This document shows positions 2,350-32,610 of a stretch of 64,000 nucleotides of DNA, piece after piece. The notes below the pieces were generated by a model, which was not told the DNA's origin, made no database searches, and saw only the letters and a program-made list of their open reading frames with translations. This stretch comes from Bdellovibrionota bacterium (GTDB taxonomy: Bacteria; Bdellovibrionota_G; JALEGL01; DATDPG01), in the NCBI GenBank assembly GCA_963668355.1, contig OY764265.1:288111-352110 (forward strand), in the 5' to 3' direction. Positions within the stretch are counted from its first letter, which is position 1, and every line of letters begins with the position of its first letter. A program made the position numbers and the translations under genes.

Positions 2350-2400
2350 ACCGACTATGAGGAAGTGTCGTCATATATCGTCGAAAAACCCGACATATAA
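2350..2400 (-). promoter_or_regulatory. copy 1 of the recurrent bipartite intergenic motif (GTCG-N7-CGAC inverted repeat, 13 nt, CTTCCTCAT box); divergent region between the ackA-xfp operon and the type III PKS
   Basis: Plus-strand sequence is ccgactatgaggaagtgtcgtcatatatcgtcgaaaaacccgacatataa. Matches seven other copies in this window. Confidence 0.5.
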
Positions 2401-2480
2401 GATGCGCCCCGCCCTCTCGGGCGTCTCATGATTCCCCAGGTCTTTCGTATTCTTTCCCTCATGGGGGGATAAAATGTGGT

Positions 2481-3548
2481 ATGGCTCTCGTCGTGCCACG
2501 TATAATCTCAACCGGTACCGCGGTTCCTCCCCATGTCTTGCGCCAAAAAGACGCGCAGGACTTCGCCGTTCGAAGGTTTGGCCAGTTCTTCCCGGAAGAA
2601 ATCGAACAGCTGACTGAAGTTTTCGATCATGCCCTGATTCAGACGCGATACATTTGTATGCCCATGGATTGGTTCGATGAGGAAAAATCTTTTTCCGAAA
2701 AGAATGATCTTTATATTCGCATGGCCGTGGAACTTTCAGCCAACGCTTCGCGCGTCGCTCTCGAACGTGCCGGTTGGACACCAAGCCAGGTGACTCACAT
2801 CATTTTTCTTTCGAGCTCGGGTCTGGCCACCCCCAGTATCGACGCAAGATTGATTGGTTTACTGGGCATGCGACCGGAAACTCGACGCACACCAATTTGG
2901 GGCCTAGGTTGTGCCGGTGGGGCGGCGGGGATCTCCCATGCCTATCACGCGGCCTTAGGTGATCCCAAAAGTCGAATCCTTGTCGTGGCGACCGACCTTT
3001 GTAGTCTTACGTTTAATTTTCAGGATTTCAGTAAAAGTAACCTGGTGGCTACCGCTTTATTTGGCGATGGAGCGGGGGCAACATGTATCGCCGGAGACGA
3101 AGTCGATCAGGCGGGCCTCGAAATCCGGGCCGCGGGGAGTTTTCTCTGGCCAGATTCCCTGGACGTCATGGGTTGGAACATTATGAATGCAGGCATGCAG
3201 GTTGTCTTCGCCAAAACCATTCCTGATATTGTTGCCCGAAATTCCCACGAAAACATCGGAAACTTCTTGGAACCGTTTGGTCTCACCATCGAGGATCTTT
3301 CCTACTTTGTCGCTCACCCAGGTGGCGTGAAAGTGTTGAAGGCCTACGAGGAAAGCCTTCGGCTTCCCCCTGAAACCCTGAACCTCTCAAGGGAAATCCT
3401 CCGAGATTTTGGGAATATGTCATCTTCGACCGTGCTATTTGTGCTCGACCGCTTCCTCGCGAAAGAGAGCTTGAAGTCACCAGCTCACGGTCTCATCACT
3501 GCCCTGGGACCGGGCTTTTCGGCCGAGAACATACTCTTTGAAACCTAA
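2481..3548 (+). CDS. type III polyketide synthase (chalcone/stilbene synthase family)
   Basis: 355 aa. Catalytic-triad context is present: GCAGGAAG (Cys), HPGG (His), GNMSSST (Asn). KAS III-like fold signatures. Confidence 0.85.
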   Translation: MALVVPRIISTGTAVPPHVLRQKDAQDFAVRRFGQFFPEEIEQLTEVFDHALIQTRYICMPMDWFDEEKSFSEKNDLYIRMAVELSANASRVALERAGWTPSQVTHIIFLSSSGLATPSIDARLIGLLGMRPETRRTPIWGLGCAGGAAGISHAYHAALGDPKSRILVVATDLCSLTFNFQDFSKSNLVATALFGDGAGATCIAGDEVDQAGLEIRAAGSFLWPDSLDVMGWNIMNAGMQVVFAKTIPDIVARNSHENIGNFLEPFGLTIEDLSYFVAHPGGVKVLKAYEESLRLPPETLNLSREILRDFGNMSSSTVLFVLDRFLAKESLKSPAHGLITALGPGFSAENILFET

Positions 3549-3695
3549 AGGTGTTTGAATCAGGGAACGCCCGAATAACGGAAAAATCTGGTGTTTTCTG
3601 CACTACAACGTTTCTTTGTTGCAATGTTTTGGATCTAGTTTTTTAGTTCGTTGTAAAATCGACATTTAGATATAGGAATACAAATACGGGTACAT

Positions 3696-4433
3696 TTGGA
3701 CATGTTGGAAGATTGGTCTTTGGGATGGCCGTTTTTTCAGATAGACCTGGGCGCAATGGGAAAAAAGCATTTTACTCAGCGTCTGAATTGGTTGCGGGCG
3801 AGCGTGCTTGGAGCCAATGATGGCATTATTTCTACGGCGAGTTTGATTTTGGGAGTCGCCGTAGCTGGGGAGCCAACCCGAAGTATTTTGATTGCGGGTT
3901 CGGCAAGCTTAGTGGCCGGGGCCATTTCTATGGCCGCAGACGAATACGTTTCGGTCAGTTCTCAGGCGGATACCGAGAAAGCAGATCTAGAGAGGGAAAA
4001 AGAGGAACTCGACCAGAATCCCGAAGCCGAGAAAAAGGAGTTAACGAATATTTACGTCGAGCGGGGTCTTTCACGCAGTTTGGCCAAACCTGTTGCCGAG
4101 CAGTTGATGGAAAAAGACGCTTTAAAAGCGCATGCACGAGAAGAGTTGGGGATCATAGAAATCCATAAAGCCCGTCCGATTCAGGCAGCCCTTGCTTCTG
4201 CATCGGCATTTACGTTTGGCGCTTTGCTACCCCTGGCCTTGGCTTATGTGACGCCGGTATCCCAATTGCCGTTGGTGGTTTCTGGCGGCTCTTTACTCTT
4301 TCTCGGTTTGCTCGGGGGTCTCGCTGCAAAGTTTGGGGGAGCTCGCATTCTTGTGGGTGTAAGCCGAGTTATGTTTTGGGGAGTATTGGCAATGCTGTTG
4401 ACATCCTTGATAGGATTTCTTCTAAGAGGCTAA
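3696..4433 (+). CDS. VIT1/CCC1-family membrane protein (putative Fe/Mn transporter); real start may be the internal ATG at 3756
   Basis: Contains LRASVLGANDGIISTASLILGVAVAG plus a central acidic coiled segment and C-terminal TM helices, typical of the VIT family. Confidence 0.75.
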   Translation: MDMLEDWSLGWPFFQIDLGAMGKKHFTQRLNWLRASVLGANDGIISTASLILGVAVAGEPTRSILIAGSASLVAGAISMAADEYVSVSSQADTEKADLEREKEELDQNPEAEKKELTNIYVERGLSRSLAKPVAEQLMEKDALKAHAREELGIIEIHKARPIQAALASASAFTFGALLPLALAYVTPVSQLPLVVSGGSLLFLGLLGGLAAKFGGARILVGVSRVMFWGVLAMLLTSLIGFLLRG

Positions 4434-4461
4434 ACGCGAAAAAAATGAAAGACTTCGAAGG

Positions 4462-4845
4462 CTATTTTATCTCGCGATAATTAACGGAAATAGTTTCAAC
4501 TCGACCTTGATCATGAATAAAACCATTGAGAAAAAAACTAATGAGGCTCACAAAAAGGGCGCCAAATAGAGCCGTCCAAAATCCATGAATTTCAACTCCC
4601 GGAACCAGACCCGCGGTAATCCAAAAACAAAAAGCGTTAAGGACAAGCAAAAAGAAGCCCAAGGTAAAAAACGTTAAGGGCAGTGTTAGTAAAACCAGAA
4701 TGGGGCGTACGAGGCCGTTAATGACACCTAAAAACAAGCCCGCCAGAAGCGCGGAAAAAATATTGTTGACTTCGATGCCAGAAAAGAGAGCGCCTACCGC
4801 CATGATAGCCACGGCATTAACGAAGATTCGAAGAAAAATTCCCAT
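4462..4845 (-). CDS. small integral membrane protein, PF04020-like (phage holin 4_2 / YvlD-like)
   Basis: 127 aa, four TM segments. The ...GLxNxxVRPILxLLTLPLTxxTLGxFLLVLN... pattern is typical of this family. Confidence 0.6.
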   Translation of the reverse strand: MGIFLRIFVNAVAIMAVGALFSGIEVNNIFSALLAGLFLGVINGLVRPILVLLTLPLTFFTLGFFLLVLNAFCFWITAGLVPGVEIHGFWTALFGALFVSLISFFLNGFIHDQGRVETISVNYREIK

Positions 4846-5193
4846 GCCTGGGTTTTAGCGGAGTTGATTTTAATTTGAAAGTGAAAAAATTCCGGGCCTA
4901 CTTTTACTCTAAAAGGTCAACTATTCAATATGGCATCTATTCTGAATCATCGTTGGTTTTTTTAGGCTTCCCAAAGGCCCATTTTTCTTTTCTGACTTGA
5001 TACGTTCACGGGAACCGTTTTAGCTATTCTATCCGTCTTGTCCACCAATGGACTTTAGCCTTTTAAAAAACGACATGAACCAGTGCAGTAGTCGGGTAGA
5101 TTCCGACCGTCCTTCCCAGAACCGTCGAAGGCCGCTGATAATGCGGAGAAATAAGTGCTACAGGGTACTAGACCCTCATGGTAAAGAGGCGTT

Positions 5194-7236
5194 ATGAATC
5201 AAGCAATGGATCTGACCTGTATCAACACCATTCGAACACTTTCTATGGATGGAGTTCAGGCGGCCAACTCGGGGCATCCCGGAACGCCCATGTCGATGGC
5301 GCCTGTGGCTTACACGCTTTGGCAAGAATTTCTCCGATTTGATCCTGAGCATGCCCAGTGGTTCAATCGCGATCGTTTCGTCCTGTCGATCGGTCATGCT
5401 TCCATGCTCCTTTATTCTCTTTTGCATTTAGCCAACGTACGAGACGCCGATGGGAAGCAACCTTCGATTTCGCTGGACGACATTCGTGGGTTTCGACAAC
5501 TCGAAAGCCGTTGTGCGGGACATCCCGAGTACGAATTGGCTCCCGGCATCGAGATGACTACTGGTCCCTTGGGACAGGGGGTAGCCACCAGCATTGGAAT
5601 GGCGATGGCCGGACGGTGGCTGGCGGCTCGATTCAACCGCCCCGACCTTCAGCTTTTTGACTACGACGTATATGCACTCTGTGGAGATGGAGACATGATG
5701 GAGGGCATCTCCTCCGAAGCCGCTTCTCTGGCCGGGCATTTGAAGCTCTCCAACCTCTGTTGGATTTACGACCAGAATCAAATCACGATTGAAGGGAGAA
5801 CGAACCTTACGTTCAGTGAAGATGTTTCGGCTCGTTTCTCCGCATACGGCTGGGATGTGGAAGAAGTTTCCGACGCCAACGACCTGAAAGCGCTCTCCGG
5901 GGCTTTTTCCCGATTTCGAGAGGGGACCGGCCGACCGCTTCTCATCGTGGTCAATAGTAGAATCGGGTTTGGTGCACCCAATAAAGAAGATACTTCCTCG
6001 GCGCATGGCGAACCGCTGGGAGAAGAGGAGATTCGGGCGACCAAGCGAGGGTACGGATGGCCAGAGGATGCTACGTTTCTTGTTCCCGAAGGGGTGCGGG
6101 AGCATTTTCAAAATCATTTAGGAAAGCGAGGAAGGGAGCTCTTTTCTGCGTGGCAAACAACGTTTGCGCGATACCAAGCTGCATATCCCGATCTGGCAGA
6201 AGAGTTAAAGACGATGGAGAACAGACAGCTTCCTGCGGGATGGGATCAGGATTTTCCTGTCTTTCCGCCGGACCCGAAAGGGATGGCGGGAAGAGTTGCA
6301 TCGGGAAAAGTTCTTAATACGCTGGCGCAAAATATTCCCTGGCTGTTTGGTGGCTCGGCAGATCTTTCGCCATCTACAAAAACCCGTTTGACCTTTGAAG
6401 GGGCGGGAGATTTTCAAAACGGAAGTTACCTTGGGCGCAATTTTCATTTTGGGATTCGTGAACATGCGATGGGTGCGATCCTCAACGGACTTTCGCTCTG
6501 CAAGGTTCGACCGTTTGGTTCGGGATTTCTCATTTTCAGCGATTATGCCCGGCCGGCGATTCGTTTGAGCGCACTGATGGAACTTCCAACGATTCATGTT
6601 TTCACGCACGATTCGATCGGCGTGGGAGAAGACGGGCCGACGCATCAACCAGTGGAGCAACTGGCTTCTCTCCGTGCGGTGCCAGGGCTGATCGTTTTGC
6701 GACCGGCCGATGCCAATGAAGTTGTGGAAGCGTGGCGCATGATTTTGGAACTTCGCTCGGAACCGGTCGCACTGATTCTGTCGCGCCAAAATCTGCCTAC
6801 GTTAGATCGGAACCGGTATCGGCCGGCATCGGATCTAAAAAAAGGTGGATATGTTCTGGCCGATTCAGAAAAGGGGGAGCCAGAGGTGCTTTTATTGGCA
6901 ACCGGCAGCAGCGTCTCTCTTGCAGTCGAGGCGTTCGAGCGGTTGTCGACCGAAGGGGTTCGTGCTCGCGTGGTGAGCCTCCCCTCTTGGGAACTTTTTG
7001 AACAACAGAGCGCAGCCTATCGAGATCAGGTTCTTCCGCCCGCCGTTACGGCCCGCGTTGCGATTGAAGAGGGGGTGACGATGGGGTGGGAGAAATATGT
7101 TGGGTCGAAGGGTAAGATATTGGGGATGAACTCGTTTGGGGCTTCGGCTCCAGCAAATGATTTGATGAAGAAGTTTGGATTTACGGTGGACCATCTTATA
7201 ACGGCCGTTCGGGAGCAGTTGATTGACGTAAAATGA
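5194..7236 (+). CDS. tkt: transketolase
   Basis: 680 aa. Shows GHPG, the TPP-binding GDGxxMEG motif and the C-terminal transketolase domain. Confidence 0.95.
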   Translation: MNQAMDLTCINTIRTLSMDGVQAANSGHPGTPMSMAPVAYTLWQEFLRFDPEHAQWFNRDRFVLSIGHASMLLYSLLHLANVRDADGKQPSISLDDIRGFRQLESRCAGHPEYELAPGIEMTTGPLGQGVATSIGMAMAGRWLAARFNRPDLQLFDYDVYALCGDGDMMEGISSEAASLAGHLKLSNLCWIYDQNQITIEGRTNLTFSEDVSARFSAYGWDVEEVSDANDLKALSGAFSRFREGTGRPLLIVVNSRIGFGAPNKEDTSSAHGEPLGEEEIRATKRGYGWPEDATFLVPEGVREHFQNHLGKRGRELFSAWQTTFARYQAAYPDLAEELKTMENRQLPAGWDQDFPVFPPDPKGMAGRVASGKVLNTLAQNIPWLFGGSADLSPSTKTRLTFEGAGDFQNGSYLGRNFHFGIREHAMGAILNGLSLCKVRPFGSGFLIFSDYARPAIRLSALMELPTIHVFTHDSIGVGEDGPTHQPVEQLASLRAVPGLIVLRPADANEVVEAWRMILELRSEPVALILSRQNLPTLDRNRYRPASDLKKGGYVLADSEKGEPEVLLLATGSSVSLAVEAFERLSTEGVRARVVSLPSWELFEQQSAAYRDQVLPPAVTARVAIEEGVTMGWEKYVGSKGKILGMNSFGASAPANDLMKKFGFTVDHLITAVREQLIDVK

Positions 7237-7982
7237 TTCGAGTTTTTCCAACCCTTGAAGAGCTTGCTCAAGACGCTGCGAAGCTTATCTGCCAAGTCGC
7301 AGGAGAACGGATTCAAAAGTCGGGGCGTTGCACGATCGCGCTTTCAGGAGGGCAAACCCCCAAAACGCTCTACAATTTCTTGGCATCAGATCTTTATCGG
7401 GACCGAATTAATTGGTCTCAAGTTGAAATCTTTTTTAGCGATGAACGAAGCGTACCGCCAGATCATGCCGATTCAAACTACCGAATGGCGTGGGAGTTGA
7501 TGCTGTCGAGACTCCCAATGGCTAAAGGGCAAATTCATCGAATGAAAGCTGAACAAACTGATCTGAGTGCGGCCGCAGCGGACTACCAAGTTGAGATTGC
7601 GAATCGGTTTGGAATTTCCCCAGAAGGTCCGCCTCCCTCTTTGGATATCATTATATTGGGAATGGGGGGCGACGGACATACGGCCTCTCTTTTCCCGGGA
7701 ACAGAAGTTCTTCAAGAGAACCAAAAGTGGGTAAGCGTTGGGCAGGGAGGGAGCCCAAAGAGTGGGCGAATGACCTTGACCGTTCCACTTCTGAATGCGG
7801 CCAAGCAGATTTTGTTTTTGGTTTCCGGAAGCGAAAAAGAATCAGCACTCAAGTCTGTTTTGGCAGAAGAGGGAGATCCCTTCCGTTACCCGGCCAGGTT
7901 GATTCGGCCGAACTCCGGAGAGTTAATTTGGTTTGTGGATGTGAAAGCGATGGATGAGGACTCGCAAGGGAGAGAAAAATGA
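7233..7982 (+). CDS. pgl: 6-phosphogluconolactonase
   Basis: 249 aa. Has TIALSGGQTP and GMGGDGHTASLFPG. ATGA overlaps with both tkt and zwf. Confidence 0.9.
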   Translation: MIRVFPTLEELAQDAAKLICQVAGERIQKSGRCTIALSGGQTPKTLYNFLASDLYRDRINWSQVEIFFSDERSVPPDHADSNYRMAWELMLSRLPMAKGQIHRMKAEQTDLSAAAADYQVEIANRFGISPEGPPPSLDIIILGMGGDGHTASLFPGTEVLQENQKWVSVGQGGSPKSGRMTLTVPLLNAAKQILFLVSGSEKESALKSVLAEEGDPFRYPARLIRPNSGELIWFVDVKAMDEDSQGREK

Positions 7983-9520: not shown

Positions 9521-9545
9521 GAGAAAAAACTTACGTGTCGAGACC

Positions 9546-15030: not shown

Positions 15031-15086
15031 CAATATGTCGCTTTTTTCGACGATGCACGCTCAAACTTCCTTATAGTCGTTTGGTG
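15031..15086 (+). promoter_or_regulatory. copy 8 of the bipartite motif, in the opposite genomic orientation to the other copies
   Basis: Sequence is caatatgtcgcttttttcgacgatgcacgctcaaacttccttatagtcg. Same element order and 13-nt spacing as the other copies when those are read on the minus strand. Confidence 0.5.
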
Positions 15087-15183
15087 GTCGTGGAGGTACA
15101 CGCTAGGGGAGATATGTTGGTTGGTGAACCGGTTGTGCGCCAAGAATAGTGAGCGCAATCCGTCGTCTTTTCATCACGACCAT

Positions 15184-15537
15184 TCAAGCACCGAACTCCA
15201 TGTGGGGTGAGAACTGTATCAATGAGGAAAACATCATGAACAAACATCCCCAGCACAAAAGACTCGGGCTCCTTTTAACCTTTTGTTTTTTAATCTCAAT
15301 GTTAGGTGCATGCGCACGCACCATGAGCTCAACAAACAAACAGCAACTGCGCTTCAGAAATCTTCCTGCTCGCTCGCCTTCCTCCTTCGTGAAATCCCCC
15401 GCCTTCTCAAGCTGATCTGCCGACGCATCGACAGCCAGGTGAAGCCATTCCATTGACTTCTCTCTGCCCGTCATAAGTTGTTCCTTGGTCTTTGAGGCCA
15501 ACTTTTCAAAGTTGGAAATTTCGCGGTCTTCATTCAT
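15184..15537 (-). CDS. hypothetical small hydrophilic protein; only the first ~63 aa look protein-like
   Basis: Strong SD (AAGAGGAG, 6 nt spacer, ATG at 15537). The N-terminal coiled-coil-like segment is plausible; the C-terminal half is low-complexity and antisense to the lipoprotein ORF. Confidence 0.35.
   Translation of the reverse strand: MNEDREISNFEKLASKTKEQLMTGREKSMEWLHLAVDASADQLEKAGDFTKEEGERAGRFLKRSCCLFVELMVRAHAPNIEIKKQKVKRSPSLLCWGCLFMMFSSLIQFSPHMEFGA
15236..15415 (+). CDS. putative small lipoprotein (59 aa)
   Basis: Lipobox LLLTFCFLISMLGAC after a basic N-terminus. SD GAGGAAAA. About 150 bp downstream of motif copy 8. Overlaps an antisense ORF, so uncertain. Confidence 0.3.
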   Translation: MNKHPQHKRLGLLLTFCFLISMLGACARTMSSTNKQQLRFRNLPARSPSSFVKSPAFSS

Positions 15538-19095: not shown

Positions 19096-20768
19096 GATTT
19101 CTCCCTTACGAATGTCTTGGACTCAATACTCTCCAGGGCATGACTGACGACAGTCTGAGCTTCCGCCACGATGCGACGAAGATGATCGGCACCCAGAAAG
19201 CTCTCCGCATAGATCTTGTAGATGTCTTCTGTCCCGGACGGACGGGCCGCAAACCATCCGTTTTCGGTCATGACTTTGAGCCCGCCGATCGGAGCGTCGT
19301 TTCCAGGTGCGCGGGTGAAACACGCTTGAATCTTTTCACCGGCTAAGTCGGTGAGCTTCACCTGATCCGGCGAGAGATTCTTCAACAACTCCTTTTGTCC
19401 TGGCGTGGCTGGCGCTTCGACGCGGTCATAAAACGGCTCCCCGAACTCGTGCGTGAGTTCGCGATACAGTTGACCGGGGTCTCGATCCATCCGCGCCGTG
19501 ATTTCGCCGGCGAGCAAGGCCGGGACGATTCCGTCTTTGTCGGTGGTCCAGACACTGCCGTCCATACGCAGGAAAGAGGCTCCCGCACTCTCTTCGCCTC
19601 CGAAGCCAAGCGAGCCATCGAGTAAACCGTCGACAAACCACTTAAACCCGACCGGCGTCTCATAGAGTTTTCGACCCACCTTGGCGGTGACACGATCGAT
19701 CATCTGGCTGCTCACCAACGTCTTGCCCACGGCAGCCTCCCTGGACCAGTTAGGTCGGTGTTGAAAGAGATAGAAGATGGCCACCGAAAGGTAGTGATTG
19801 GGAGGAAGTAGTCCGGTGCTAGGGGTGACAATGCCGTGCCGATCGTGGTCGGTATCGCAAGCAAAGCCGATGTCGAAACGGTCCTTCAGTTCGATGAATT
19901 TTTGCATGGCGTAGGGTGATGATGGATCCATGCGGATCTGGCCGTCCCAATCCACCGTCATAAAACGGAACGTCGGGTCGACGGTCTCGTTCACGATCGT
20001 GAGGTTCAACCCGTAGCGTTCGGCAATCGGTTCCCAGTAGTGGATCCCGGCGCCGCCGAGTGGATCGACCCCCAGGTTGCTCTTCGCGGCGCGAATGATG
20101 CCCATGTCAATTACATTTCCAAGGTCGTTGACATAGGCATTGAGATAATCGTGCCGGTGCGTCGTAGGGGCGCGGAGGGCTCTTTCGTAGGGAATTCTCT
20201 TCAAGCCCGGAAGGTCATTTTCAAGAAACTCGTTGGCCTTGGTTTCAATCCACCCGGTGATGCCCGATTCTGCCGGCCCGCCGTTGGGGGGATTGTATTT
20301 GAACCCGCCGTCATGGGGCGGGTTGTGTGACGGCGTGATGACAATCCCGTCGGCAAAGCCCGACGTGCGTCGGCGATTGTACGTGAGAATCGCGTGGGAA
20401 ATGACAGGCGTTGGCGTGTATTCATCTCCCTTCGCGAGCATGACTTCCACGCCGTTTGCCGCCAGAACCTCGAGCGCGGTGGCCAGAGCCGGCACGGAAA
20501 GAGCATGCGTGTCCATGCCGAGAAACAGTGGGCCACCAATATTCTTCTGCTTCCGGTAGAGGCAAATGGCCTGACTGATGGCCAGGACATGTTGTTCGTT
20601 GAAGGCCTTTTCAAACGCGCAACCGCGGTGGCCCGAGGTGCCGAAGGCCACCCGTTGTTCGGGGACGAAGGGATTCGGTACTTCCGTATAATAAGCCGTA
20701 ACCAGTTTCGGTACGTCTACCAGCATCGATGCTTCGGCCGACTTTCCTGCATAGGGGCTTACGGTCAT
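19092..20768 (-). CDS. pgm: phosphoglucomutase (alpha-D-glucose phosphate-specific)
   Basis: 558 aa. Active-site TPSHNPPHDGGFKYN and the Mg loop FDGDGDR-like region. ATGA overlaps on both sides. Confidence 0.9.
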   Translation of the reverse strand: MTVSPYAGKSAEASMLVDVPKLVTAYYTEVPNPFVPEQRVAFGTSGHRGCAFEKAFNEQHVLAISQAICLYRKQKNIGGPLFLGMDTHALSVPALATALEVLAANGVEVMLAKGDEYTPTPVISHAILTYNRRRTSGFADGIVITPSHNPPHDGGFKYNPPNGGPAESGITGWIETKANEFLENDLPGLKRIPYERALRAPTTHRHDYLNAYVNDLGNVIDMGIIRAAKSNLGVDPLGGAGIHYWEPIAERYGLNLTIVNETVDPTFRFMTVDWDGQIRMDPSSPYAMQKFIELKDRFDIGFACDTDHDRHGIVTPSTGLLPPNHYLSVAIFYLFQHRPNWSREAAVGKTLVSSQMIDRVTAKVGRKLYETPVGFKWFVDGLLDGSLGFGGEESAGASFLRMDGSVWTTDKDGIVPALLAGEITARMDRDPGQLYRELTHEFGEPFYDRVEAPATPGQKELLKNLSPDQVKLTDLAGEKIQACFTRAPGNDAPIGGLKVMTENGWFAARPSGTEDIYKIYAESFLGADHLRRIVAEAQTVVSHALESIESKTFVREKS

Positions 20769-21467
20769 ACTTGTTCCTTGGGAGCCGTGCGATGGAGCAA
20801 TGCCTCTCGTTCGAAATGAACAAGATCACCGATGTGCTCAATCGAAATATCAGCGCGCGGAAATGTGGTCACCACCTTGCGGTCGAGAGCATAATGTCCC
20901 TGGCGGGGCCAAACCGTGGTTAACCTCTCGCCCCAAAATTCCTTCATGGCTGTGAGGATTCGAAGTTTATCGTCAACCATCACGTAATGGCTCGCTGGAT
21001 AGCGCTTTTCGATTTCATCGAGCATCTGCTCTTTATGAATGTAAATCAGCACACGGCCCTCAACTGCGTCCCAGAGTCCCGATCGTTGAACCTTCCGCGG
21101 CTGGAAGACGGCGTCGCCATCGGTAAGAATGACCGTCGGTCCCCAGAGCCCAGCGCGCGTAAGAACTTTGAAAGCATCAGGGTATAAACGGTCCGCAAAG
21201 GGGTAATCCATCAGATACGAAGACATGGTCAAGAGTCGCGGGTCGAACCGTTCTTCGAGGCGGTAGCGCTGCAGAGTTCCCAGATGGTCCGAGTACCCAC
21301 ACTCAGCGTGCAACTCTTCAAAAATGGCCCAGTACCGTTCTTGAACGTCAGCCCCGAACTCATGCTCAAGATGGCTCTTAAGATCATTCTGTACGACATC
21401 GTTGTCGAGCAACGTGTTGTCAACATCGAAAAGAAATACCATGTTTTCCTTTGCCATCATCCCAGAA
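20765..21467 (-). CDS. HAD-superfamily hydrolase (phosphatase), first gene of the HAD-pgm-glgP operon
   Basis: DxDxT motif FLFDVDNTLLD near the N-terminus. The ORF-track extension LWGVEPPRSTPPSSG is translation of the upstream hairpin element and is unlikely to be real. Confidence 0.75.
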
Positions 21468-21470
21468 CTC

Positions 21471-21545
21471 GGGGGAGTGGAGCGGGGGGGCTCCACTCCC
21501 CAAAGCACAAAACTATTGTTTCGTGCTCATTTCGGGCGAAAGGAC
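21471..21545 (-). promoter_or_regulatory. structured leader element B, copy 1: an 8-bp hairpin with a (A/C)ATAG loop followed by an 11-bp GC hairpin (GGGGAGTGGAG / CTCCACTCCCC)
   Basis: About 85% identical to 27113-27186. Sits immediately 5' of the HAD start codon. Wobble and compensatory changes in hairpin 1 preserve pairing between the two copies. Confidence 0.45.
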
Positions 21546-21592
21546 AGGCGCTCCATTTCTTGAATCCAGCCAATGTATATCTTGGTACCCCA

Positions 21593-21644
21593 CCGTCGAC
21601 GATAAGGAAGTTTCTTCGTATATCATCGGAAAAAGTGACATATC
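21593..21644 (-). promoter_or_regulatory. copy 2 of the bipartite motif, upstream of element B and the HAD-pgm-glgP operon
   Basis: Sequence is ccgtcgacgataaggaagtttcttcgtatatcatcggaaaaagtgacatatc. Confidence 0.5.
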
Positions 21645-21697
21645 GAGAGGACCGGGCCTAGTGGCTTCACGGTCCTCCTGAGGTTGATATGGCCTGT

Positions 21698-22445: not shown

Positions 22446-22552
22446 GGGCTATTTCTCCTTTTGAATACGTATTTCATTCAATTTAAACATTTGTTCTCGA
22501 AATTGTTTCGCCATAGTCGAGGAAGCCTCTATTTACAGGCAACCTCAACCAC

Positions 22553-22602
22553 CAACTATGAGGAAGTTTCATCGTATAGCGTCGGAAAATACGACGTATA
22601 GA
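22553..22602 (-). promoter_or_regulatory. copy 3 of the bipartite motif (divergent region between DUF2934 and 22847)
   Basis: Sequence is accaactatgaggaagtttcatcgtatagcgtcggaaaatacgacgtatag. Shares an extended upstream box TTTACAGGCAnCnTCAAnCACC with copy 1. Confidence 0.5.
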
Positions 22603-22846
22603 ACGCCGATCACGGAGTTACAGCTCATCTCGAGAGTACTTGAGAAAAGGCATAATTGAAGGCCTTGATATCGCTTTCGGACATCTCGAGGCTATAGCTT
22701 CGTGAAACAAGATCAACTCCAACCTATCGCTTTTTACGACCCTACGCGTTTGAATTTCCAAATAGTCAATAGACCCCTGGGACACGTAAAAGGAAACCTG
22801 ACGATTGCTGTCTTATGAGACTTGTAGAAGAAAGTAGGAGTACGTT

Positions 22847-23128
22847 ATGGAAAACAAAAAAGAACACATTGGAAACATGGAAAAGAAACTCACACAATGG
22901 GGTAAAACGCTCGATGAACTCACGGCCAAGGCTGAGAAAGCCGGCGGTGATGCGAAGAGTGATTACCGCAAGGGAGTCGACGATCTAAAAGCGAAATACA
23001 AATTCACTCAAACCAAACTTGCGAAATTTAAAACCGGAAGCAGCGAAAACTGGGACACGTTCAAGACCGGGATTGAAAATGCCTGGGATGAGCTTGAAGA
23101 GACGTTCAAGAAGCTTACGAATCAGTAG
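22847..23128 (+). CDS. hypothetical small hydrophilic coiled-coil protein (93 aa)
   Basis: SD AGGAG. Lys/Glu-rich, with no TM segments. Confidence 0.5.
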   Translation: MENKKEHIGNMEKKLTQWGKTLDELTAKAEKAGGDAKSDYRKGVDDLKAKYKFTQTKLAKFKTGSSENWDTFKTGIENAWDELEETFKKLTNQ

Positions 23129-25094: not shown

Positions 25095-25115
25095 GGGGAT
25101 CTCCTATCATGATCG

Positions 25116-27108: not shown

Positions 27109-27112
27109 ATGA

Positions 27113-27186: not shown

Positions 27187-28632
27187 GACGACATCAATTC
27201 GCCGATTCATGGCTCGGCCTTCCGTCGTGGTATTGGGCGCCACCGGTTTGGCGGGTCCGTAACCGACCGAGACGATTTGGGCATTCGTCAAGGTGCGATT
27301 GGCTAGGAAATATTCCTTCACGGCATCTGCACGGGAAAGGGACAAATGCTCGTTCATGGCGGCTGACCCGGTCGTATCCGTATGACCTTCAATGGTCACT
27401 TGCGGCTGTCCGAAGGTGCGGATGGCATGCTGCACCTTGCTTAACAGCGTGTAGTTGTCCGGCATAATTACTGATTTGCCCACCGGAAACCGCATGGCTT
27501 TGAGTCGAATCAGAAGTTGGTCGCCTTGTTTGTAGACCTCGGCATCTTTAGGGTCAAAGTACGAACGCACTTCGCCATAAAGCTTATTAAAACGCTTCTC
27601 CGCTTCCAGTCGAGCCGTGGCCTCTTGTTCGGTTTTGCTGGTGCCTTCTAACGAGGCAATTTTTTGATGAAGATCGGCGTTCGTCATTTCCTGACTCGTG
27701 GTTTTTTCGGCTAGATACATCCGGTCTTTTTGTAGGCCGACAATCGTTCCGTTGATATTTTCCACTTGCGTCTTGAATGTCTGGTTACGCATGTCGGGGG
27801 CAAATAACGTGTTCGCAATTTGGGTCAGCATGTTTTCCATCCAAATCGCCGATTGTTCCGGCGATTTCTTGCGCAGGGCCACGCTTTGGTCGAGCATGTA
27901 TTTCAAACGTTCGGCGTGAAAGATCGCTTCGTTGGCTTTCTTAAGCATTTCCTCTCGGTTGTATCGATTTTGGGAAATGAACGAATCGGCTTCAGCCAAC
28001 TTCTTCTTGGCGAGAGCTAACGTTTCCGGCACCACCTTCTTAGCCTCTCGTTTTTCGGCCTCACCGATAAGGTCACGGGCTTGGCCGAGAGCCTTTTCTT
28101 TAATGGCTCGAAGTTCGAGGTTGCGAAAGCTTTGGGTGACGCGAGGTTGGTTGTTTTTAGCCCATTCGAGATTGTTGTCTTCAATTTCTTTGGTCAGTTT
28201 TTGAAAACTGGCTTCGGCTGCGTCATAGTCTTTACCGAGCGAAGGCGCTCCAGCCGCTTGGGCGTCGTCGCGTGCGGCGATCACGTTTGGCAACGCGGTT
28301 CGGGCCACTCTGGCCATTTCATTGGCTTGCTTAAGCTCTGCCCGTCCCTGACTGACCTCGGCAAAGATGTCATCGAGGCTGCTTCCTTTTTTCTGAAGCT
28401 GCTTGGCCTTAGCTAGTGACGCTTCGGCTTTGGTATATGAAGTGGGCGCAAGTACATTTACTTTCTCGGTTCGTGCCTGATGGACAGCCGTATCCAAAGA
28501 AGAAATTTGTTCGCTGGGATTTGCGGTGGAGGAAATTTTGGTCACATTCAGACTTTTTCCTCCGCAACTCATCAACACGAGAGATGCAAAAAGCATCATC
28601 GTGCGGTTAAAAAGCTGGGTTTTCATGGTCAT
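27157..28632 (-). CDS. OmpA-family lipoprotein with a long coiled-coil region
   Basis: Lipobox LVLMSCGG, about 330 aa of coiled coil, and a C-terminal OmpA domain (GHTDTTGSAAMNEHLSLSRADAVKEYF...NRRIDVVI). Confidence 0.8.
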   Translation of the reverse strand: MTMKTQLFNRTMMLFASLVLMSCGGKSLNVTKISSTANPSEQISSLDTAVHQARTEKVNVLAPTSYTKAEASLAKAKQLQKKGSSLDDIFAEVSQGRAELKQANEMARVARTALPNVIAARDDAQAAGAPSLGKDYDAAEASFQKLTKEIEDNNLEWAKNNQPRVTQSFRNLELRAIKEKALGQARDLIGEAEKREAKKVVPETLALAKKKLAEADSFISQNRYNREEMLKKANEAIFHAERLKYMLDQSVALRKKSPEQSAIWMENMLTQIANTLFAPDMRNQTFKTQVENINGTIVGLQKDRMYLAEKTTSQEMTNADLHQKIASLEGTSKTEQEATARLEAEKRFNKLYGEVRSYFDPKDAEVYKQGDQLLIRLKAMRFPVGKSVIMPDNYTLLSKVQHAIRTFGQPQVTIEGHTDTTGSAAMNEHLSLSRADAVKEYFLANRTLTNAQIVSVGYGPAKPVAPNTTTEGRAMNRRIDVVISPEMGTRP

Positions 28633-28726
28633 GTTCCTTTCGGCACACCGAAACCTGGAAAAACAATTTTTTCAGGGAGAGGTGCTCCATTTTGTGAATC
28701 GACTAAACGTATATCTTGATCCCAGG

Positions 28727-28780
28727 CCGTCGACGATAAGGAAGTTTCAGCCCACTATGTCGAAAAAACCGACCTATTCA
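28727..28780 (-). promoter_or_regulatory. copy 4 of the bipartite motif, upstream of the OmpA-like gene
   Basis: Sequence is ccgtcgacgataaggaagtttcagcccactatgtcgaaaaaaccgacctattc. Embedded in a ~150-bp segment duplicated from the hsp20 3' region. Confidence 0.5.
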
Positions 28781-28887
28781 AAAGGGCCGTGAAAAACGGG
28801 TCTTGCCCGGCCCTCATTGGGTGGATAAGGCCTATCTAAGAGACTGTGGTTTTACCGGCTTTGGGTTTGGCTTCTTAGTCAGGAAAA

Positions 28888-29091
28888 CTATTTTAAGAGG
28901 ATTCCCTTTTTCGTGATGGCACGTTCCGCGGTGAGCCAGTCTTCTAACTCACGGCCGCCGGCAAAACCGCGGTTTTCCGCTTCAAAGTAGGCAGCTTTCG
29001 CGATCTTCGCGTGGTCATCAGCTTGCGTTAGGTTGGCTCGGCCTTTGGTTGAGTTGTTTGTTTTCGCTTCGTTTTTTCGTTTTATATACAT
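28888..29091 (-). CDS. DUF2934-family small protein (paralog of 22245-22445)
   Basis: HAKIAKAAYFEAENRGFAGGRELEDWLTAERAI. Confidence 0.55.
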   Translation of the reverse strand: MYIKRKNEAKTNNSTKGRANLTQADDHAKIAKAAYFEAENRGFAGGRELEDWLTAERAITKKGILLK

Positions 29092-29106
29092 AGACGCCTC
29101 TTCTTT

Positions 29107-29310
29107 TTACGAATGTTGGGTTGTGGGTAAGGGAAGGATTTCAGAAACCTTAACGGCTTTTTCGTTCTGGTCAGGATTCTTGATTGATGCTGTATCGGGA
29201 GTTCTGGTCATAGAAGTATGACTTTTCGCCACACCAGGCCAAGTGTCGGCCAAAGCTAATTGCACGTTGCGTGCGGCCGTTAGTGCCGGCAATGTAAATA
29301 TTTCTTTCAT
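29107..29310 (-). CDS. hypothetical small protein (67 aa)
   Basis: Strong SD GGAGGAAACT immediately before the ATG. Divergent from the LysR gene; motif copy 5 lies about 90 bp upstream. Confidence 0.45.
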   Translation of the reverse strand: MKEIFTLPALTAARNVQLALADTWPGVAKSHTSMTRTPDTASIKNPDQNEKAVKVSEILPLPTTQHS

Positions 29311-29390
29311 AGTTTCCTCCGTTTAGGGACGGGTTGCGCTCGTGTCAAACGTGATCTGAGCTAGGAGATGATTCATACATTCCAAACAAT

Positions 29391-29445
29391 CTGGCGACTA
29401 TTCGGAAGTTTAAGTGTGCATTGTCGAAAAAAACGACGTATAGCA
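29391..29445 (-). promoter_or_regulatory. copy 5 of the bipartite motif (LysR / small-ORF divergent region)
   Basis: Sequence is ctggcgactattcggaagtttaagtgtgcattgtcgaaaaaaacgacgtatagc. Confidence 0.45.
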
Positions 29446-29450
29446 GGGGC

Positions 29451-30353
29451 ATGGAATGGCTCAACTACCACCATCTTTTATATTTCTGGGTTGTAGCCAA
29501 AGAGGGAAGTATCGTGGCGGCGAGTCGGCAGTTGCGTCTCGCCCATCCTACCATTAGCGGTCAGATCCATCGGCTTGAGGAAATGCTTGGGCAAAAATTG
29601 TTTACGAAAAAAGGACGGAATATCGTTCTGACCGAAGAAGGCCGAGTGGCCTTTCGTTACGCCGAAGAAATTTTCACACTTGGGAACGAGTTTTTAGACA
29701 CGGTCAAAGGTCAGCCGAGCAGTTGGCCTTTGCGTTTGGTTGTGGGGGTTTCGGATGCCCTTGCCAAGTCCGTCGTGTACAGAATTCTGCAGCCTGTATT
29801 CAGTCTGGACAAGGATGTTCAAGTGGTCTGTCGCGATGATCGTTCGATCAAAGAATTCATGGGGGATTTGGCCTTGGGTGAAGTGGATGTCGTGCTTTCG
29901 GATGCCCCGGCGGGTCCCGGTTCGCCCGTGCGGGCTTTTAGCCATCTTCTTGGTGAGTGTGGCACAGCCTTTTTTGCGGCCCCCGCGCTGGCCAACAAAC
30001 TTCGGCGCAAATTTCCGCAGTCGCTCGATGGTGCCTCTTTTCTAGTGCCAGGCATTGATTCTACGCTTCGCCGAGCGTTGCGGGGATGGTTTGAGAGGCT
30101 GGATATCCAGCCAAAGATTATCGCCGAATTGGATGACGCGGCGCTGGCCAAGATTTTTTGTGAGGCTGGGTTGGGCGTGATGGCGGCCCCTGATGTTAGT
30201 GAGAAGGAAGTGAAGGCGCGCTACCATGTGCAGGTGGTTGGTCGGTCAGAAAAGGTGCGGCAACAAGTTTTTGCGATTTCGCTTGAACGAAAAATCAAAC
30301 ATCCTGCGGTGATCACGATTTGTGAGGCGGCACGGAAGAGCGTTTTTTCTTGA
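29451..30353 (+). CDS. LysR-family transcriptional regulator
   Basis: N-terminal HTH (LNYHHLLYFWVVAKEGSIVAASRQLRLAHPTISGQIHRLEE) plus a LysR substrate-binding domain. The ORF-track start at 29421 overlaps the motif, so ATG 29451 is preferred. Confidence 0.85.
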   Translation: MEWLNYHHLLYFWVVAKEGSIVAASRQLRLAHPTISGQIHRLEEMLGQKLFTKKGRNIVLTEEGRVAFRYAEEIFTLGNEFLDTVKGQPSSWPLRLVVGVSDALAKSVVYRILQPVFSLDKDVQVVCRDDRSIKEFMGDLALGEVDVVLSDAPAGPGSPVRAFSHLLGECGTAFFAAPALANKLRRKFPQSLDGASFLVPGIDSTLRRALRGWFERLDIQPKIIAELDDAALAKIFCEAGLGVMAAPDVSEKEVKARYHVQVVGRSEKVRQQVFAISLERKIKHPAVITICEAARKSVFS

Positions 30354-30753
30354 GTTTGGTTGATCGTTTGGACGCAACTTTTCTTTTTTTCTTAGGGGCG
30401 CGTTTAGTAGGTAGGGAATTTTTTTTAGTCACAGGTTTTGATATTCTCTCCTGACGTTCTTGTTCTAGTTTAATGATGCGAGCCACAGAGCGAGCCGCAC
30501 GATCCACGGCTCGATTGAAGGCGGTAAACACATCAGGATCAGTTTCTTGCACATTCACCGAACGGGCCAAGCCCACTTGGATGCGGCAGCGTTTTTCCGC
30601 GGGGCTGTGATGGACATTCGAGTTGGAAAGGTGGACGGTAACATGGTCGATGTTTTCAGCGAATCGGCTTAAGGCAAAACCAAGTCTAAGTTCAACATGT
30701 GAACGCAGAGTCTTGGTGACTCTGATGTCACAACTTTGTATTTGAATCTTCAT
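30313..30753 (-). CDS. HPF/RaiA-like ribosome-associated protein with a Lys-rich C-terminal tail (second paralog)
   Basis: MKIQIQSCDIRVTKTLRSHVELRLGFALSRFAENIDHVTVHL... has the HPF-like N-domain, followed by a KKKRKVASKRSTKLKKKR tail. The 3' end overlaps the LysR gene 3' end by about 40 nt. Confidence 0.6.
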   Translation of the reverse strand: MKIQIQSCDIRVTKTLRSHVELRLGFALSRFAENIDHVTVHLSNSNVHHSPAEKRCRIQVGLARSVNVQETDPDVFTAFNRAVDRAARSVARIIKLEQERQERISKPVTKKNSLPTKRAPKKKRKVASKRSTKLKKKRSSVPPHKS

Positions 30754-30955
30754 GGCAAAGATACGTTACGCTTCCTGGAGATGCCCGAATATAAGGAAAT
30801 GACAGGACGAAACGTTGTAATATCCGTCATGGGAAATCCGAACGGAAACAGCCCACGGCAGCGTTCGCCACCGCAGGCTGTGTTGTCACGCTACGAATTG
30901 ATCTTACGCGTAGGGGGAAGGGGTGGTAAGGATCCGTAGAGTGTGATCAAGCAAT

Positions 30956-31156
30956 TTATTGTTTGGGAAGGGATTTTTGAAAAGCAGCGATTTCTTTTTC
31001 GACATCCGATTTAGAACGTTTGTAAACTGTGGACACTTTATTGGCTAGGATCGACATGTCTTTTCCAATTGTGCGGATGTCGCCCTCGCTTAGCTTTTCC
31101 CATTTAGCATGAATTTTTTCACTTAATGTTGTTTCTGAACCTTTGGATTCGGTCAT
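30956..31156 (-). CDS. CsbD-like general stress protein (66 aa)
   Basis: SD AAGGAG. MTESKGSETTLSEKIHAKWEKLSEGDIRTIGKDMSILANKVSTVYKRSKSDVEKEI resembles the CsbD family. The longer ORF-track version has an implausible N-terminus. Confidence 0.6.
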   Translation of the reverse strand: MTESKGSETTLSEKIHAKWEKLSEGDIRTIGKDMSILANKVSTVYKRSKSDVEKEIAAFQKSLPKQ

Positions 31157-31223
31157 CTTAATTCTCCTTGAAAACGATTTGGTAGTTGTATTTGAATGTC
31201 CTGTATATCGATGATGGCGCTCA

Positions 31224-31268
31224 ATAAATATGAGGAAATATGAAAGAAAGGCGTCGACAAAAACAACG
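31224..31268 (-). promoter_or_regulatory. copy 7 (weaker) of the bipartite motif, upstream of the CsbD-like gene
   Basis: aatatgaggaaatatgaaagaaaggcgtcgacaaaaacaac. Retains the TTTTTGTCGACG half and a TTTCCTCAT box at 13-nt spacing. Confidence 0.3.
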
Positions 31269-31498
31269 TGTATGAAAACGTGCCTGTTGTTCGTTTTTTG
31301 CCAACCCGGCTGAGCAAAAAACACCAAAGGCATTCTTGAAATCGCAGCCTCCGATGGGAGCCCGGAAACCCCAGCTTATTTGCTGGATCATGCCTACGCA
31401 GTTGCACCTGATGTTCTTAAAGCCGCACGCAATGCACAGAATTTATAAGTCGGGGGGGCAGGTAGGGACCTGCCCGCGACTTACAGTTTCTCGCATTC

Positions 31499-32503
31499 TT
31501 ATGATGGTCTATTACCACTGTTTCCAGGTGAGGAATCCGAAGATGCCATGCCTAACCCGGGCAAGGGTGCCATCGCCGAATCCGACGCCCTGCCGGTCTG
31601 GTCGGCTTCCATCATGGCGTTGCGCATTTGTTCGGTGAGAGTGCTGAGATTGCCCGGCGAGTGGGGAATCAGGATCGCATTTGTCCGCGACGAGGCACCG
31701 ATCTCCTTAAGCATGTCAAAATATTGGGTCATCAACACGAGGTTCATCACATCTTTTGCGGTTGTGCCCGGCACGGACTTCCGAAACTCATCCACCGAAT
31801 CGCGCAGACCCGCGACAATGGCTTGGCGTTGATCGGCAATGCCTCGACCCTGCAGGGCCTTGCTTTGAGCATCGCCCTCAGCAGCCTTGACCTTCAGGAT
31901 CCGATCTGCTTCGCCTCGCTCGGTCGCCGCTACCCGCATGCGCTGGGCCGCATTGATTTCGTTCATCGACACCTTCACATTGGCATCCGGATCAATGTCG
32001 GTAACAAGCGCCTTGAGGATCCCGTACCCGAAACCTTCCATGACTTGGGCGAGTTCGCTCTTCACGATGTTGGCAATATCATCCTTTTTCTCAAACACGT
32101 CATCGAGTTTGATTTTGGGCACTTGGGCCCGCACAACATCAAAGACAAAGGAAGTAATTTGTCGTTTCGCATTGTCGAGTTTGTAAAATGCATCGTACGT
32201 CTTCTCCGGCAAGACAAAGAACTGTACGGCGACCACCATGCGGACGAAGACGTTGTCTTCCGTCTTGGTCTCGATCTCGACGTCCAGTTGCTGAACACGT
32301 AAGTTGACACGACCGACAACTCTATCGATAAAAGGAACCTTGATACGGATACCCGGTCCGGCTTCCCGCACGAATTTTCCAAACCGCTGTACGATCGCAG
32401 TTGAGCGTTGTTCCACCGTAAAAAATGTCGCCGTAAGCACAACGAGCATCCCGACCGTAAACACACCCGCACCAAAAATATAGGTCATAATTTCATTTTG
32501 CAT
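31499..32503 (-). CDS. SPFH/band-7 (stomatin/prohibitin-like) membrane protein
   Basis: N-terminal TM, SPFH domain, coiled-coil region and a disordered Ser/Gly-rich tail. SD AAGGAG. Confidence 0.85.
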   Translation of the reverse strand: MQNEIMTYIFGAGVFTVGMLVVLTATFFTVEQRSTAIVQRFGKFVREAGPGIRIKVPFIDRVVGRVNLRVQQLDVEIETKTEDNVFVRMVVAVQFFVLPEKTYDAFYKLDNAKRQITSFVFDVVRAQVPKIKLDDVFEKKDDIANIVKSELAQVMEGFGYGILKALVTDIDPDANVKVSMNEINAAQRMRVAATERGEADRILKVKAAEGDAQSKALQGRGIADQRQAIVAGLRDSVDEFRKSVPGTTAKDVMNLVLMTQYFDMLKEIGASSRTNAILIPHSPGNLSTLTEQMRNAMMEADQTGRASDSAMAPLPGLGMASSDSSPGNSGNRPS

Positions 32504-32552
32504 CACATCTCCTTAAGTTTCATAACTAGTGTTTTTATACTTCTGGAGTTGA

Positions 32553-32610
32553 CCATCGACCATGAGGAAGTTTCATCGTGTAGCGTCGCAAAAAGCGACA
32601 TGATTATTCA
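32553..32610 (-). promoter_or_regulatory. copy 6 of the bipartite motif (SPFH / GGDEF divergent region)
   Basis: Sequence is ccatcgaccatgaggaagtttcatcgtgtagcgtcgcaaaaagcgacatgattattc. Confidence 0.5.

Follow-up and report, generated by a model that had tools for sequence, protein, structure and literature searches.

LysR-type regulators form a large group in which the classical promoters (CbnR, BenM, CysB, OxyR) have a recognition site at about -65 and an activation site at about -35. The closest described relative of the system reported here is E. coli NhaR, the LysR-type activator of nhaA, osmC and pgaABCD, with the consensus TCgaAAAAatCtA (PMC6307784); its binding site stays loosely defined. 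The general stress response is poorly understood in Myxococcota, in the lineage of the DNA studied here (probably Bdellovibrionota) and in their relatives. We analyzed a 64,000-nt stretch of this DNA (the window), in which a preliminary description had reported eight copies of a bipartite intergenic motif of about 50 bp upstream of putative stress genes. We think it likely that the motif is a two-part predicted site for an NhaR-type LysR regulator and that each copy is an activator-dependent promoter.

All eight reported copies are present, at coordinates right within a few bases, and seven form an ungapped 54-bp alignment, scoring 65-75 bits against a matrix built from the same seven; shuffled windows, 20 in number, reached at most -0.6 bits. 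A degenerate 40-nt pattern gave 8 matches in the window vs 0 in every one of 100 dinucleotide-preserving shuffles. Two further copies had been overlooked, which brings the total to ten: seven strong, one weak and these two (Table 1). The fixed 13-nt gap within the motif and the longer flanks common to copies 1/3 and 2/4 had been described correctly. All ten copies lie wholly between genes, in a region with 88.5% coding sequence, and every one faces its adjacent downstream gene. Positions 33-64 kb of the window are without any copy.

Table 1. Motif copies, predicted start sites and associated genes in the window.
Feature	Coordinates	Strand	Score or basis	Predicted start site	Predicted target or adjoining genes
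Motif copy 1 (both predicted LysR boxes)	2347-2400	-	69 bits; intergenic	~2322	small ORF-ackA-xfp operon, 2201 to below 790
Motif copy 8 (sole strong + strand copy)	15031-15084	+	74 bits	~15109	ORF 15149-15415, probable lipoprotein
Motif copy 2	21592-21645	-	72.5 bits	~21567	HAD-pgm-glgP operon, 21508 to 16549 (Pfam)
Motif copy 3	22548-22601	-	74.6 bits	~22523	DUF2934 (22445-22245), Hsp20 (22147-21698) (Pfam)
Additional copy, back-to-back with copy 3	22720-22773	+	28 bits; exact degenerate-pattern match	~22798	93-aa ORF 22847-23128
Motif copy 4	28726-28779	-	65 bits	~28701	OmpA/DUF4398-radical SAM-hibernation factor-DUF1003 operon, 28626 to 24175 (Pfam)
Motif copy 5	29390-29443	-	65 bits		two small ORFs 29310-28888 (one DUF2934) and divergent regulator gene
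LysR-type transcriptional regulator, NhaR family	29451-30353	+	NCBIfam NF008284; E. coli NhaR alignment		
Degenerate copy (overlooked before)	30781-30834	-	5.3 bits, exceeds every shuffle		hibernation factor gene 30753-30313, ATG 3 nt past predicted start site
Motif copy 6 (weak)	31220-31273	-	15.5 bits	~31195	66-aa ORF 31156-30956
Motif copy 7	32552-32605	-	71.6 bits	~32527	SPFH/Band 7 gene 32506-31499 (Pfam)
GGDEF gene, divergent from the copy 7 target	32648-33592				

The genes behind the copies agree in part with those named in the preliminary description. Its xfp assignment was confirmed: Pfam identifies ackA in the copy 1 operon, and the xfp product is 84% identical to the XFP of a public locus (L056). 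The lipoprotein behind copy 8 also stands on a by-eye reading of its signal (the translation holds ...LLTFCFLISMLGAC), and this ORF had no Pfam match. Copy 3 precedes an Hsp20 gene, left out of that description, as well as DUF2934, and just one of the two small ORFs following copy 5 matches the DUF2934 family. The ORF called CsbD-like had no Pfam match at E<=0.01, and Pfam searches likewise returned no match for the 66-aa ORF behind copy 6 or the 93-aa ORF behind the additional copy. The start of the copy 4 operon was placed from a database protein (P0121, 489 aa) that is 100% identical to the 491-aa ORF opening at 28632. In the degenerate copy, the first box is weak and the second box and the TA that follows it are intact.

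In public genomes and metagenomes, which yielded 153 unique copies, the motif is built from two T-N11-A boxes of LysR type whose centers lie 30 bp apart. The first reads TCG-nnTTTTn-CGA (fuller form ATAyGTCG-nnTTTTn-CGACg) and the second TCC-TnATnGT-CGA (fuller form AACTTCC-TnATnGT-CGA). T-27 CG-N7-CGA-15 and T3 CC-N7-CGA15 are near-invariant. Part of this was set by the searches: both patterns required T-27, C-26, C-17, G-16, A-15, T3, C4 and C5, and the one used on metagenomes required G-25 as well; in the second box, the search-independent conservation is that of C13, G14 and A15 only. The GTCG-N7-CGAC repeat, put forward earlier as a dimer-binding operator, is upheld as a predicted LysR T-N11-A box, and the second half of the motif reads as another such box over the predicted -35 region, not as a sigma element. 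A TA dinucleotide is conserved 17 nt past the second box in these copies (T32 in 71%, A33 in 83%), at positions covered by neither search pattern nor scoring matrix, and the core can be written TnGTCG-N17-TAnnnn with GGGsc before it.

In relatives, the start codons behind the motif show a sharp maximum at +44/+45, counted from the A of ACTTCC (22 of 142). This peak suggests leaderless mRNAs starting at about +44, which would put A33 at -11 and the boxes at about -65 and -35, implying, for that predicted start site, the classical layout of LysR recognition and activation sites. nATnGT was considered as the -10 element and dropped in view of the TA conserved at +32/33 and the start codons at +44/45. 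A sigma-70 consensus scan found no promoter-like site in the motif-bearing spacers, as expected of activator-dependent promoters, and its total count was not above that of shuffles. The -10 element is without a conserved T at -7, which leaves the sigma factor uncertain. Like classical LysR promoters, those in the window pair two T-N11-A dyads 30 bp apart with a weak core promoter, and include a regulator gene in divergent orientation, with a promoter that would overlap the recognition site. They differ in a second box conserved as strongly as the first, an uncommon trait in LysR activation sites, in a recognition-box T-tract of fixed orientation and in the packing of about ten sites in one 30-kb island.

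Many similar copies within 30 kb, a short inverted repeat and copy pairs with longer flanks in common would also suit a REP/MITE-like element, mobile or repetitive and dispersed, or an RNA element in a transcribed 5' leader. We regard either as highly improbable, given that ten out of ten copies are intergenic and gene-directed and that records named as Myxococcota, with a few named Acidobacteria or Nitrospira, retain the motif 5' of the same families of genes. The earlier opinion that this is not a mobile repeat therefore holds, with 0 of 10 window copies inside called genes. An RNA element is further disfavored by the lack of an Rfam match, by the lack of covariation at the free stem pair -28/-14 (7 compensated vs 32 uncompensated changes) and by the start codons at +44/45, which would put the motif upstream of the transcript. 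CTTCCTC was considered as an anti-Shine-Dalgarno sequence or RNA thermometer and set aside on the same grounds (position upstream of the predicted start site, Rfam, covariation).

The regulator gene beside copy 5 scores 227.2 bits (cutoff 219) over residues 1-299 of 300 against the NCBIfam equivalog model NF008284, 'transcriptional activator NhaR', and its product aligns end to end with E. coli NhaR (300 aa, 37% identity). The exact 300-aa sequence is present as a database protein (P0241), and homologues are named NhaR or 'activator of nhaA' in their source records. The TI(S/T)GQI helix-turn-helix segment of E. coli NhaR is kept in the window protein, and the E. coli targets have the same DNA box as the window motif, TCG-N7-CGA with a central A/T tract: the first motif box matches the E. 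coli consensus as well as TCGTAAAAAACGA and TCGAAAAATCCGA in the nhaA and pgaA upstream regions, respectively. The same pattern found no box in the E. coli osmC upstream region. Gene order differs, the regulator being divergent from its target here and nhaR following nhaA in E. coli, and the composite site is far better conserved than the E. coli sites.

The motif and this regulator are also linked in public sequences. An orthologue is present in 68 of the 102 loci retrieved by motif alone, and for 42 of 138 motif copies in such loci its start codon lies divergently at -38 to -60, most commonly at -42, which is the distance of the regulator ATG from the A of ACTTCC in copy 5. Orthologues adjoining the motif are 50-88% identical to the window regulator, and the divergent arrangement occurs in 54 of the 69 loci that include the regulator N-terminus. 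Reciprocally, orthologues retrieved by protein have motif copies alongside, located 5' of hibernation factor, Hsp20-SPFH-GroES-GroEL, GGDEF, TerC and SPFH genes. One close orthologue (L183, 77% identical) is an exception, without a canonical site at its own start and with weak sites nearby. We propose that the window regulator is the protein most likely to bind every motif copy. The preliminary description had attributed the element to one dedicated regulator of a stress regulon, which is supported, and had left the choice between a sigma factor and a dimeric regulator open; the evidence now favors the latter, in the form of the predicted NhaR-family protein from the adjoining 'LysR' gene.

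On a rival view, an alternative sigma factor (RpoH-like or another stress sigma) would recognize the whole element as its promoter, and the LysR gene would be no more than an adjoining regulon member. We find this distinctly unlikely. An RpoH-family gene stands directly behind the motif in two lineages, resembling autoregulation, GroES/EL and Hsp20 are among the targets and the -10 element is not sigma-70-like, but strong conservation extends to about -76 from the predicted start site, beyond sigma factor contacts, and the upstream half is a dyad. The TCG-N7-CGA box common to E. coli NhaR targets and the stereotyped divergent regulator gene, a LysR hallmark, point the same way. In a comparison by eye with literature sequences, neither half fits the sigma-32, sigma-B, ECF or sigma-54 consensus; sigma-32 (CTTGAAA/CCCCATnT), sigma-B (GTTT/GGGTAT), ECF (AAC/CGT), EcfG, sigma-28 and sigma-54 were each considered, and none fits in both sequence and spacing. 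Since the RpoH gene is a target in two lineages, a sigma-32-type holoenzyme could nevertheless read the core promoter.

Another reading has the NhaR-type regulator bind the sites and chiefly repress transcription until stress lifts the repression. LysR regulators often repress their own genes, and the second box would overlap the -35 region, as the first box would, at copy 5, overlap the -10 of the regulator gene itself. A -65 plus -35 layout is, however, the classical geometry of LysR activation, and repression would call for promoters able to fire unaided, whereas these are without sigma-70-like -35/-10 elements. With E. coli NhaR itself being an activator (PMC6307784), we judge predominant repression to be unlikely.

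We thus favor activation by the NhaR-type regulator. The upstream box, centered about 65 bp before the transcription start, would serve as the recognition site, and the second box, 30 bp on, would overlap the -35 region, followed after 17 nt by a minimal -10 element (the conserved TA). The two boxes would be occupied by the regulator, presumably in tetrameric form, which, on sensing a stress signal, would allow RNA polymerase to start at otherwise weak promoters. Roughly ten dormancy and stress-survival operons could be switched on in this way, encoding ribosome hibernation factors, Hsp20, glycogen breakdown, phosphoketolase/acetate kinase, OmpA-like, SPFH and small DUF2934 proteins. Autoregulation would follow at copy 5, where the site would overlap the regulator's own divergent promoter.

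The regulon predicted from these sites is different from that of E. coli NhaR and much larger. Targets common to Myxococcota and relatives are the ribosome hibernation factor, Hsp20, GroES/EL, RpoH, a fatty-acid desaturase, TerC, SPFH and GGDEF genes, which, with glycogen catabolism, set the window-type regulon apart. None of the copies, in the window or the retrieved loci, has nhaA downstream, so functional equivalence to E. coli NhaR is at most putative; NhaA homologues in two loci (L015, L028) are close by, not downstream of the motif. Loci of HAD orthologues (L055-57) and OmpA homologues (L058-61) had no motif; these come from other lineages or hold a housekeeping paralogue. Literature searches with the motif sequence string returned primers only, and those pairing NhaR with Myxococcus or Bdellovibrio gave no pertinent results. 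This regulon seems not to have been described before, and we regard it as a putative new regulon of a known regulator family. With a textbook mechanism, it offers no new principle and matters instead for annotation and the discovery of regulons.

Here, many genes for stress and dormancy are connected with a precisely delimited DNA site and a named regulator, and the motif is specific enough for regulon prediction in any genome of these groups. It also provides a clean comparative consensus for E. coli NhaR. The targets suggest that rpoH, groESL, hsp20 and ribosome hibernation may be under a LysR-type regulator in these bacteria. More broadly, and tentatively, such a regulator could be a conserved master switch for general stress and dormancy in place of a sigma factor across Myxococcota, the window's lineage and possibly some Acidobacteriota/Nitrospirota, standing above RpoH, GroES/EL, Hsp20 and ribosome hibernation and acting through an unusually rigid 50-bp dual-box promoter, often of leaderless mRNAs. 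In gene content (Hsp20, hibernation factor, OmpA-like and small stress proteins, chaperones) the regulon resembles those of sigma-B, EcfG/PhyR, RpoS and RpoH. Unlike in these sigma-based regulons, control would apparently run through a LysR-type DNA-binding protein, and, unlike in the RpoH heat-shock regulon, RpoH would be a target and not the top of the hierarchy. The hibernation factor is the most frequent motif target outside the window, and SPFH and GGDEF genes are also targets in other lineages.

All eight motif sites of the preliminary description were present in the window, and seven of them aligned without gaps across 54 bp when each was read toward its adjacent gene. A matrix built from these seven scored them at 65-75 bits, against a top score of -0.6 bits among 20 shuffled windows; it also recovered the eighth, weak site and located two copies that had gone unnoticed, one of them degenerate. 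Eight window matches were found with a 40-nt degenerate pattern, compared with none in 100 dinucleotide-preserving shuffles. No comparable site was returned by the same scans between 33 and 64 kb. All ten sites are wholly intergenic, in a region that is 88.5% coding, and all ten are oriented toward a neighbouring gene (families assigned by Pfam; see table). A mobile repeat, which the preliminary description had argued against, and an RNA element are both excluded by position, orientation and the motif's reappearance in other lineages ahead of the same gene families; the motif had no Rfam match and no covariation.

Motif copies and other features of the window (start only where one position is given)
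Feature	Position	Strand	Score (bits)	Downstream genes or content
Copy 1	2347	-	65-75	small ORF-ackA-xfp; xfp confirmed
Copy 8	15031	+	65-75	ORF with lipoprotein-like signal in its translation, read by eye; no Pfam match
Copy 2	21592	-	65-75	HAD-phosphoglucomutase-glycogen phosphorylase
Copy 3	22548	-	65-75	DUF2934 and Hsp20
New copy	22720-22773	+	28	93-aa ORF
Copy 4	28726	-	65-75	OmpA/DUF4398-radical SAM-ribosome hibernation factor-DUF1003
Copy 5	29390	-	65-75	two small ORFs, one DUF2934
Degenerate copy	30781-30834	-	5.3	second hibernation factor
Copy 6 (weak)	31220-31273	-	15.5	66-aa ORF
Copy 7	32552	-	65-75	SPFH protein
Regulator	29451-30353	+		NhaR-family LysR-type gene, divergent from copy 5
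Dense island	790-33592			see text
Mini-ORF	1998-2201	-		67-aa ORF between copy 1 and ackA
HAD hydrolase	20765-21508	-		see text
GGDEF gene	32648-33592	+		diguanylate cyclase, divergent from copy 7
tRNA gene	37470-37544	-		
tRNA gene	37622-37693	-		

Scanning 185,579 species genomes with an exact pattern gave 54 loci, and a pattern scan of metagenomes gave at least 120 stretches; pooled, these held 153 unique copies above 20 bits among the matches listed. In the profile of these copies (position 0 is the A of ACTTCC), the conserved elements are ATAyGTCG at -32 to -25, TTTT at -22 to -19, CGACg at -17 to -13, AACTTCC at -1 to 5, T at 6, AT at 8-9, GTC at 11-13 and A at 15, followed by GGGsc at 27-31, T32 (71%) and A33 (83%). 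The conservation of the 27-33 block is independent evidence, since neither the search pattern nor the scoring matrix covers this block. Both halves form T-N11-A boxes of the LysR type, T-27 CG-N7-CGA-15 (box 1) and T3 CC-N7-CGA15 (box 2), with centres 30 bp apart. The search patterns fixed most letters of box 1 and the TCC of box 2, while the CGA of box 2 was left free.

The earlier reading of the motif as a promoter or operator, which left a sigma factor and a dimeric regulator both open, is supported and sharpened by the divergent LysR-type gene beside copy 5. Its ATG lies on the opposite strand, 42 bp from the A of ACTTCC, and a database protein has exactly the same 300-aa sequence. The protein passes the NCBI NhaR equivalog model (227 bits, cutoff 219), and its end-to-end alignment to E. 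coli NhaR shows 37% identity, with the helix-turn-helix segment kept. When it was searched against every locus fetched solely by the motif, orthologues were found in 68 of 102 among the matches listed, at 50-78% identity for full-length proteins and up to 88% for N-terminal fragments at contig ends. A divergent regulator start codon was at -41 to -48 from a motif copy in 54 of the 69 loci with a regulator N-terminus, most commonly at -42 (26 loci); counted per copy, 42 of 138 with enough flank were abutted by such a start (both among the matches listed). At this spacing the conserved ATA (-32 to -30), taken on the opposite strand, reads as TAT at positions -12 to -10 in the promoter of the regulator itself, which suggests a leaderless, autoregulated transcript.

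The reciprocal test used orthologues fetched by protein sequence instead of by motif. L185 and L186 (66% identity) have a canonical copy at the regulator start and three others within 4 kb; the genes they precede are a hibernation factor, a 225-aa protein, a DUF5670 protein and an Hsp20-SPFH-GroES-GroEL string. In L184, from a Myxococcales MAG, a diverged copy at -43 faces a GGDEF gene and others precede SPFH and TerC genes. In L183 (77% identity) all copies were weak; they precede a hibernation factor gene and a Transgly_assoc gene, and the regulator start itself has none. No motif was found in related gene clusters from lineages without the regulator (L055-L057). Taken on sequence evidence, the motif is most likely a dual-box operator/promoter of an NhaR-type LysR regulator, predicted to control a stress and dormancy regulon.

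First start codons of the downstream ORFs peak sharply at +44/+45 (22 of 142 among the matches listed, versus 0-4 at most other positions), and conserved families are among the genes in the peak, namely GGDEF proteins, a small membrane protein that has no Pfam assignment and a small KQGxRDLNxYGP protein. Many Myxococcota-type regulon genes begin exactly there (L034, L098, L123, L133, L159 and others). The simplest reading would be leaderless mRNAs starting near +44, which would make A33 the -11 base, put TnGTCG (9-14) at the -35 position and centre the boxes near -65 and -35, the standard recognition-site/activation-site layout of LysR-type activators. For the seven strong copies this reading predicts starts 11 nt beyond A33, near 2322, 15109, 21567, 22523, 28701, 29365 and 32527. 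The degenerate site before the second hibernation factor gene has the same geometry, with TA at +32/33 and ATG at +47. A sigma-70 consensus scan found no promoter-like site in any motif-bearing spacer, a result consistent with weak, activator-dependent promoters. That the motif is purely a sigma-factor promoter is unlikely: conserved positions reach as far as about -76, the upstream half forms a dyad, and none of the known sigma consensus sequences compared by eye matches. Repression through these sites by the NhaR-type regulator is possible but disfavoured by the presumed -65/-35 geometry and by the absence of self-sufficient promoters.

When the ORFs downstream of the 153 copies (among the matches listed) were clustered, the largest families were the hibernation factor (16 copies), fatty-acid desaturase (about 13-15), Hsp20 (13), the KQGxRDLNxYGP protein (11), a coiled-coil protein of about 100 aa (10) and a 130-155-aa protein of no named family (10). 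TerC (8), GGDEF (7), GroEL (5), OmpA/DUF4398 (4), GroES (3), a small membrane protein with no Pfam match (3) and DUF2934 (3) followed. The KQGxRDLNxYGP protein is conserved, about 65 aa long and without a Pfam family, and carries the signature (I/M)TKQG(V/L)RDLN(Y/F)YGP. In two lineages the targets also include an RpoH-family sigma factor, with a score of 294 bits against the sigma-32 subfamily model (cutoff 241) and an RRKLFFKLR stretch that may be read as an RpoH box. RpoH is a candidate sigma factor for the core TnGTCG-N17-TA, which lacks a conserved T at -7.

The E. coli NhaR site has been called poorly defined, with a PRODORIC matrix TcgtaAaAAac and a T-N11-A consensus TCgaAAAAatCtA (PMC6307784). 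The E. coli K-12 regions upstream of nhaA (L182 587-599, TCGTAAAAAACGA) and pgaA (L188 1081-1093, TCGAAAAATCCGA) each hold one perfect TCG-N7-CGA box with a central A-tract, equivalent to box 1 of our motif on the other strand; the osmC upstream region had no box of this pattern. These boxes could aid in refining the loosely defined E. coli site. No nhaA gene was found among the targets of our motif.

Convincing matches of the genome scan, those also keeping consensus positions left unspecified by the pattern, were mostly from Myxococcota, among them Sorangium cellulosum So ce26 (L050), which carries the regulator together with the motif; a few came from MAGs under the labels Acidobacteria and Nitrospira. 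For the window's OmpA-like protein, the best-matching homologues were in Bdellovibrionota MAGs (58-60% identity). Among contigs binned outside Myxococcota, an NhaR-like gene accompanies the motif in L042 (Nitrospira MAG) and L012 (Acidobacteria MAG), and none was found near it in L002 (Acidobacteria MAG); either the distribution is genuinely wider or these contigs were misbinned. Such a mechanism is conventional, and databases already name the protein family; we found no account in the searchable literature of the regulon, the 50-bp composite consensus or its breadth across Myxococcota and relatives.

Given the genes downstream of the ten copies, the window's first 33 kb looks like a stress and dormancy island. 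It is dense with xfp-ackA, a type III PKS and VIT1, tkt-pgl-zwf, a 6-phosphogluconate-dehydrogenase-like gene, TamB/Omp85, a PRC-barrel protein, glgP-pgm-HAD, Hsp20, three DUF2934 genes, two hibernation factor paralogues, SPFH and GGDEF; the pentose-phosphate genes, PKS and PRC-barrel are among those without their own motif copy. The HAD hydrolase is 70-74% identical to proteins whose sources are named as Thermodesulfobacteriota, Isosphaeraceae and others, and at the three loci examined (L055-L057) its homologues lie beside glycogen phosphorylase and/or phosphoketolase/acetate kinase or pentose-phosphate genes. Such conservation, unusually high for a HAD protein, suggests a specific role in glycogen or sugar-phosphate metabolism. 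The 67-aa ORF has a weak NAD_binding_2 match, the N-terminal part of the 6-phosphogluconate-dehydrogenase fold, and a similar 81-aa ORF lies 5' of G6PD (L055 3732-3977); a conserved mini-protein and a gene remnant are both possible readings of it. The two tRNA genes are the window's only Rfam matches. The window's GGDEF gene is divergent from copy 7, and GGDEF genes of other lineages immediately follow motif copies or diverge from the regulator. This hints at a connection between the regulon and c-di-GMP signalling that would recall the control of pgaABCD by E. coli NhaR.
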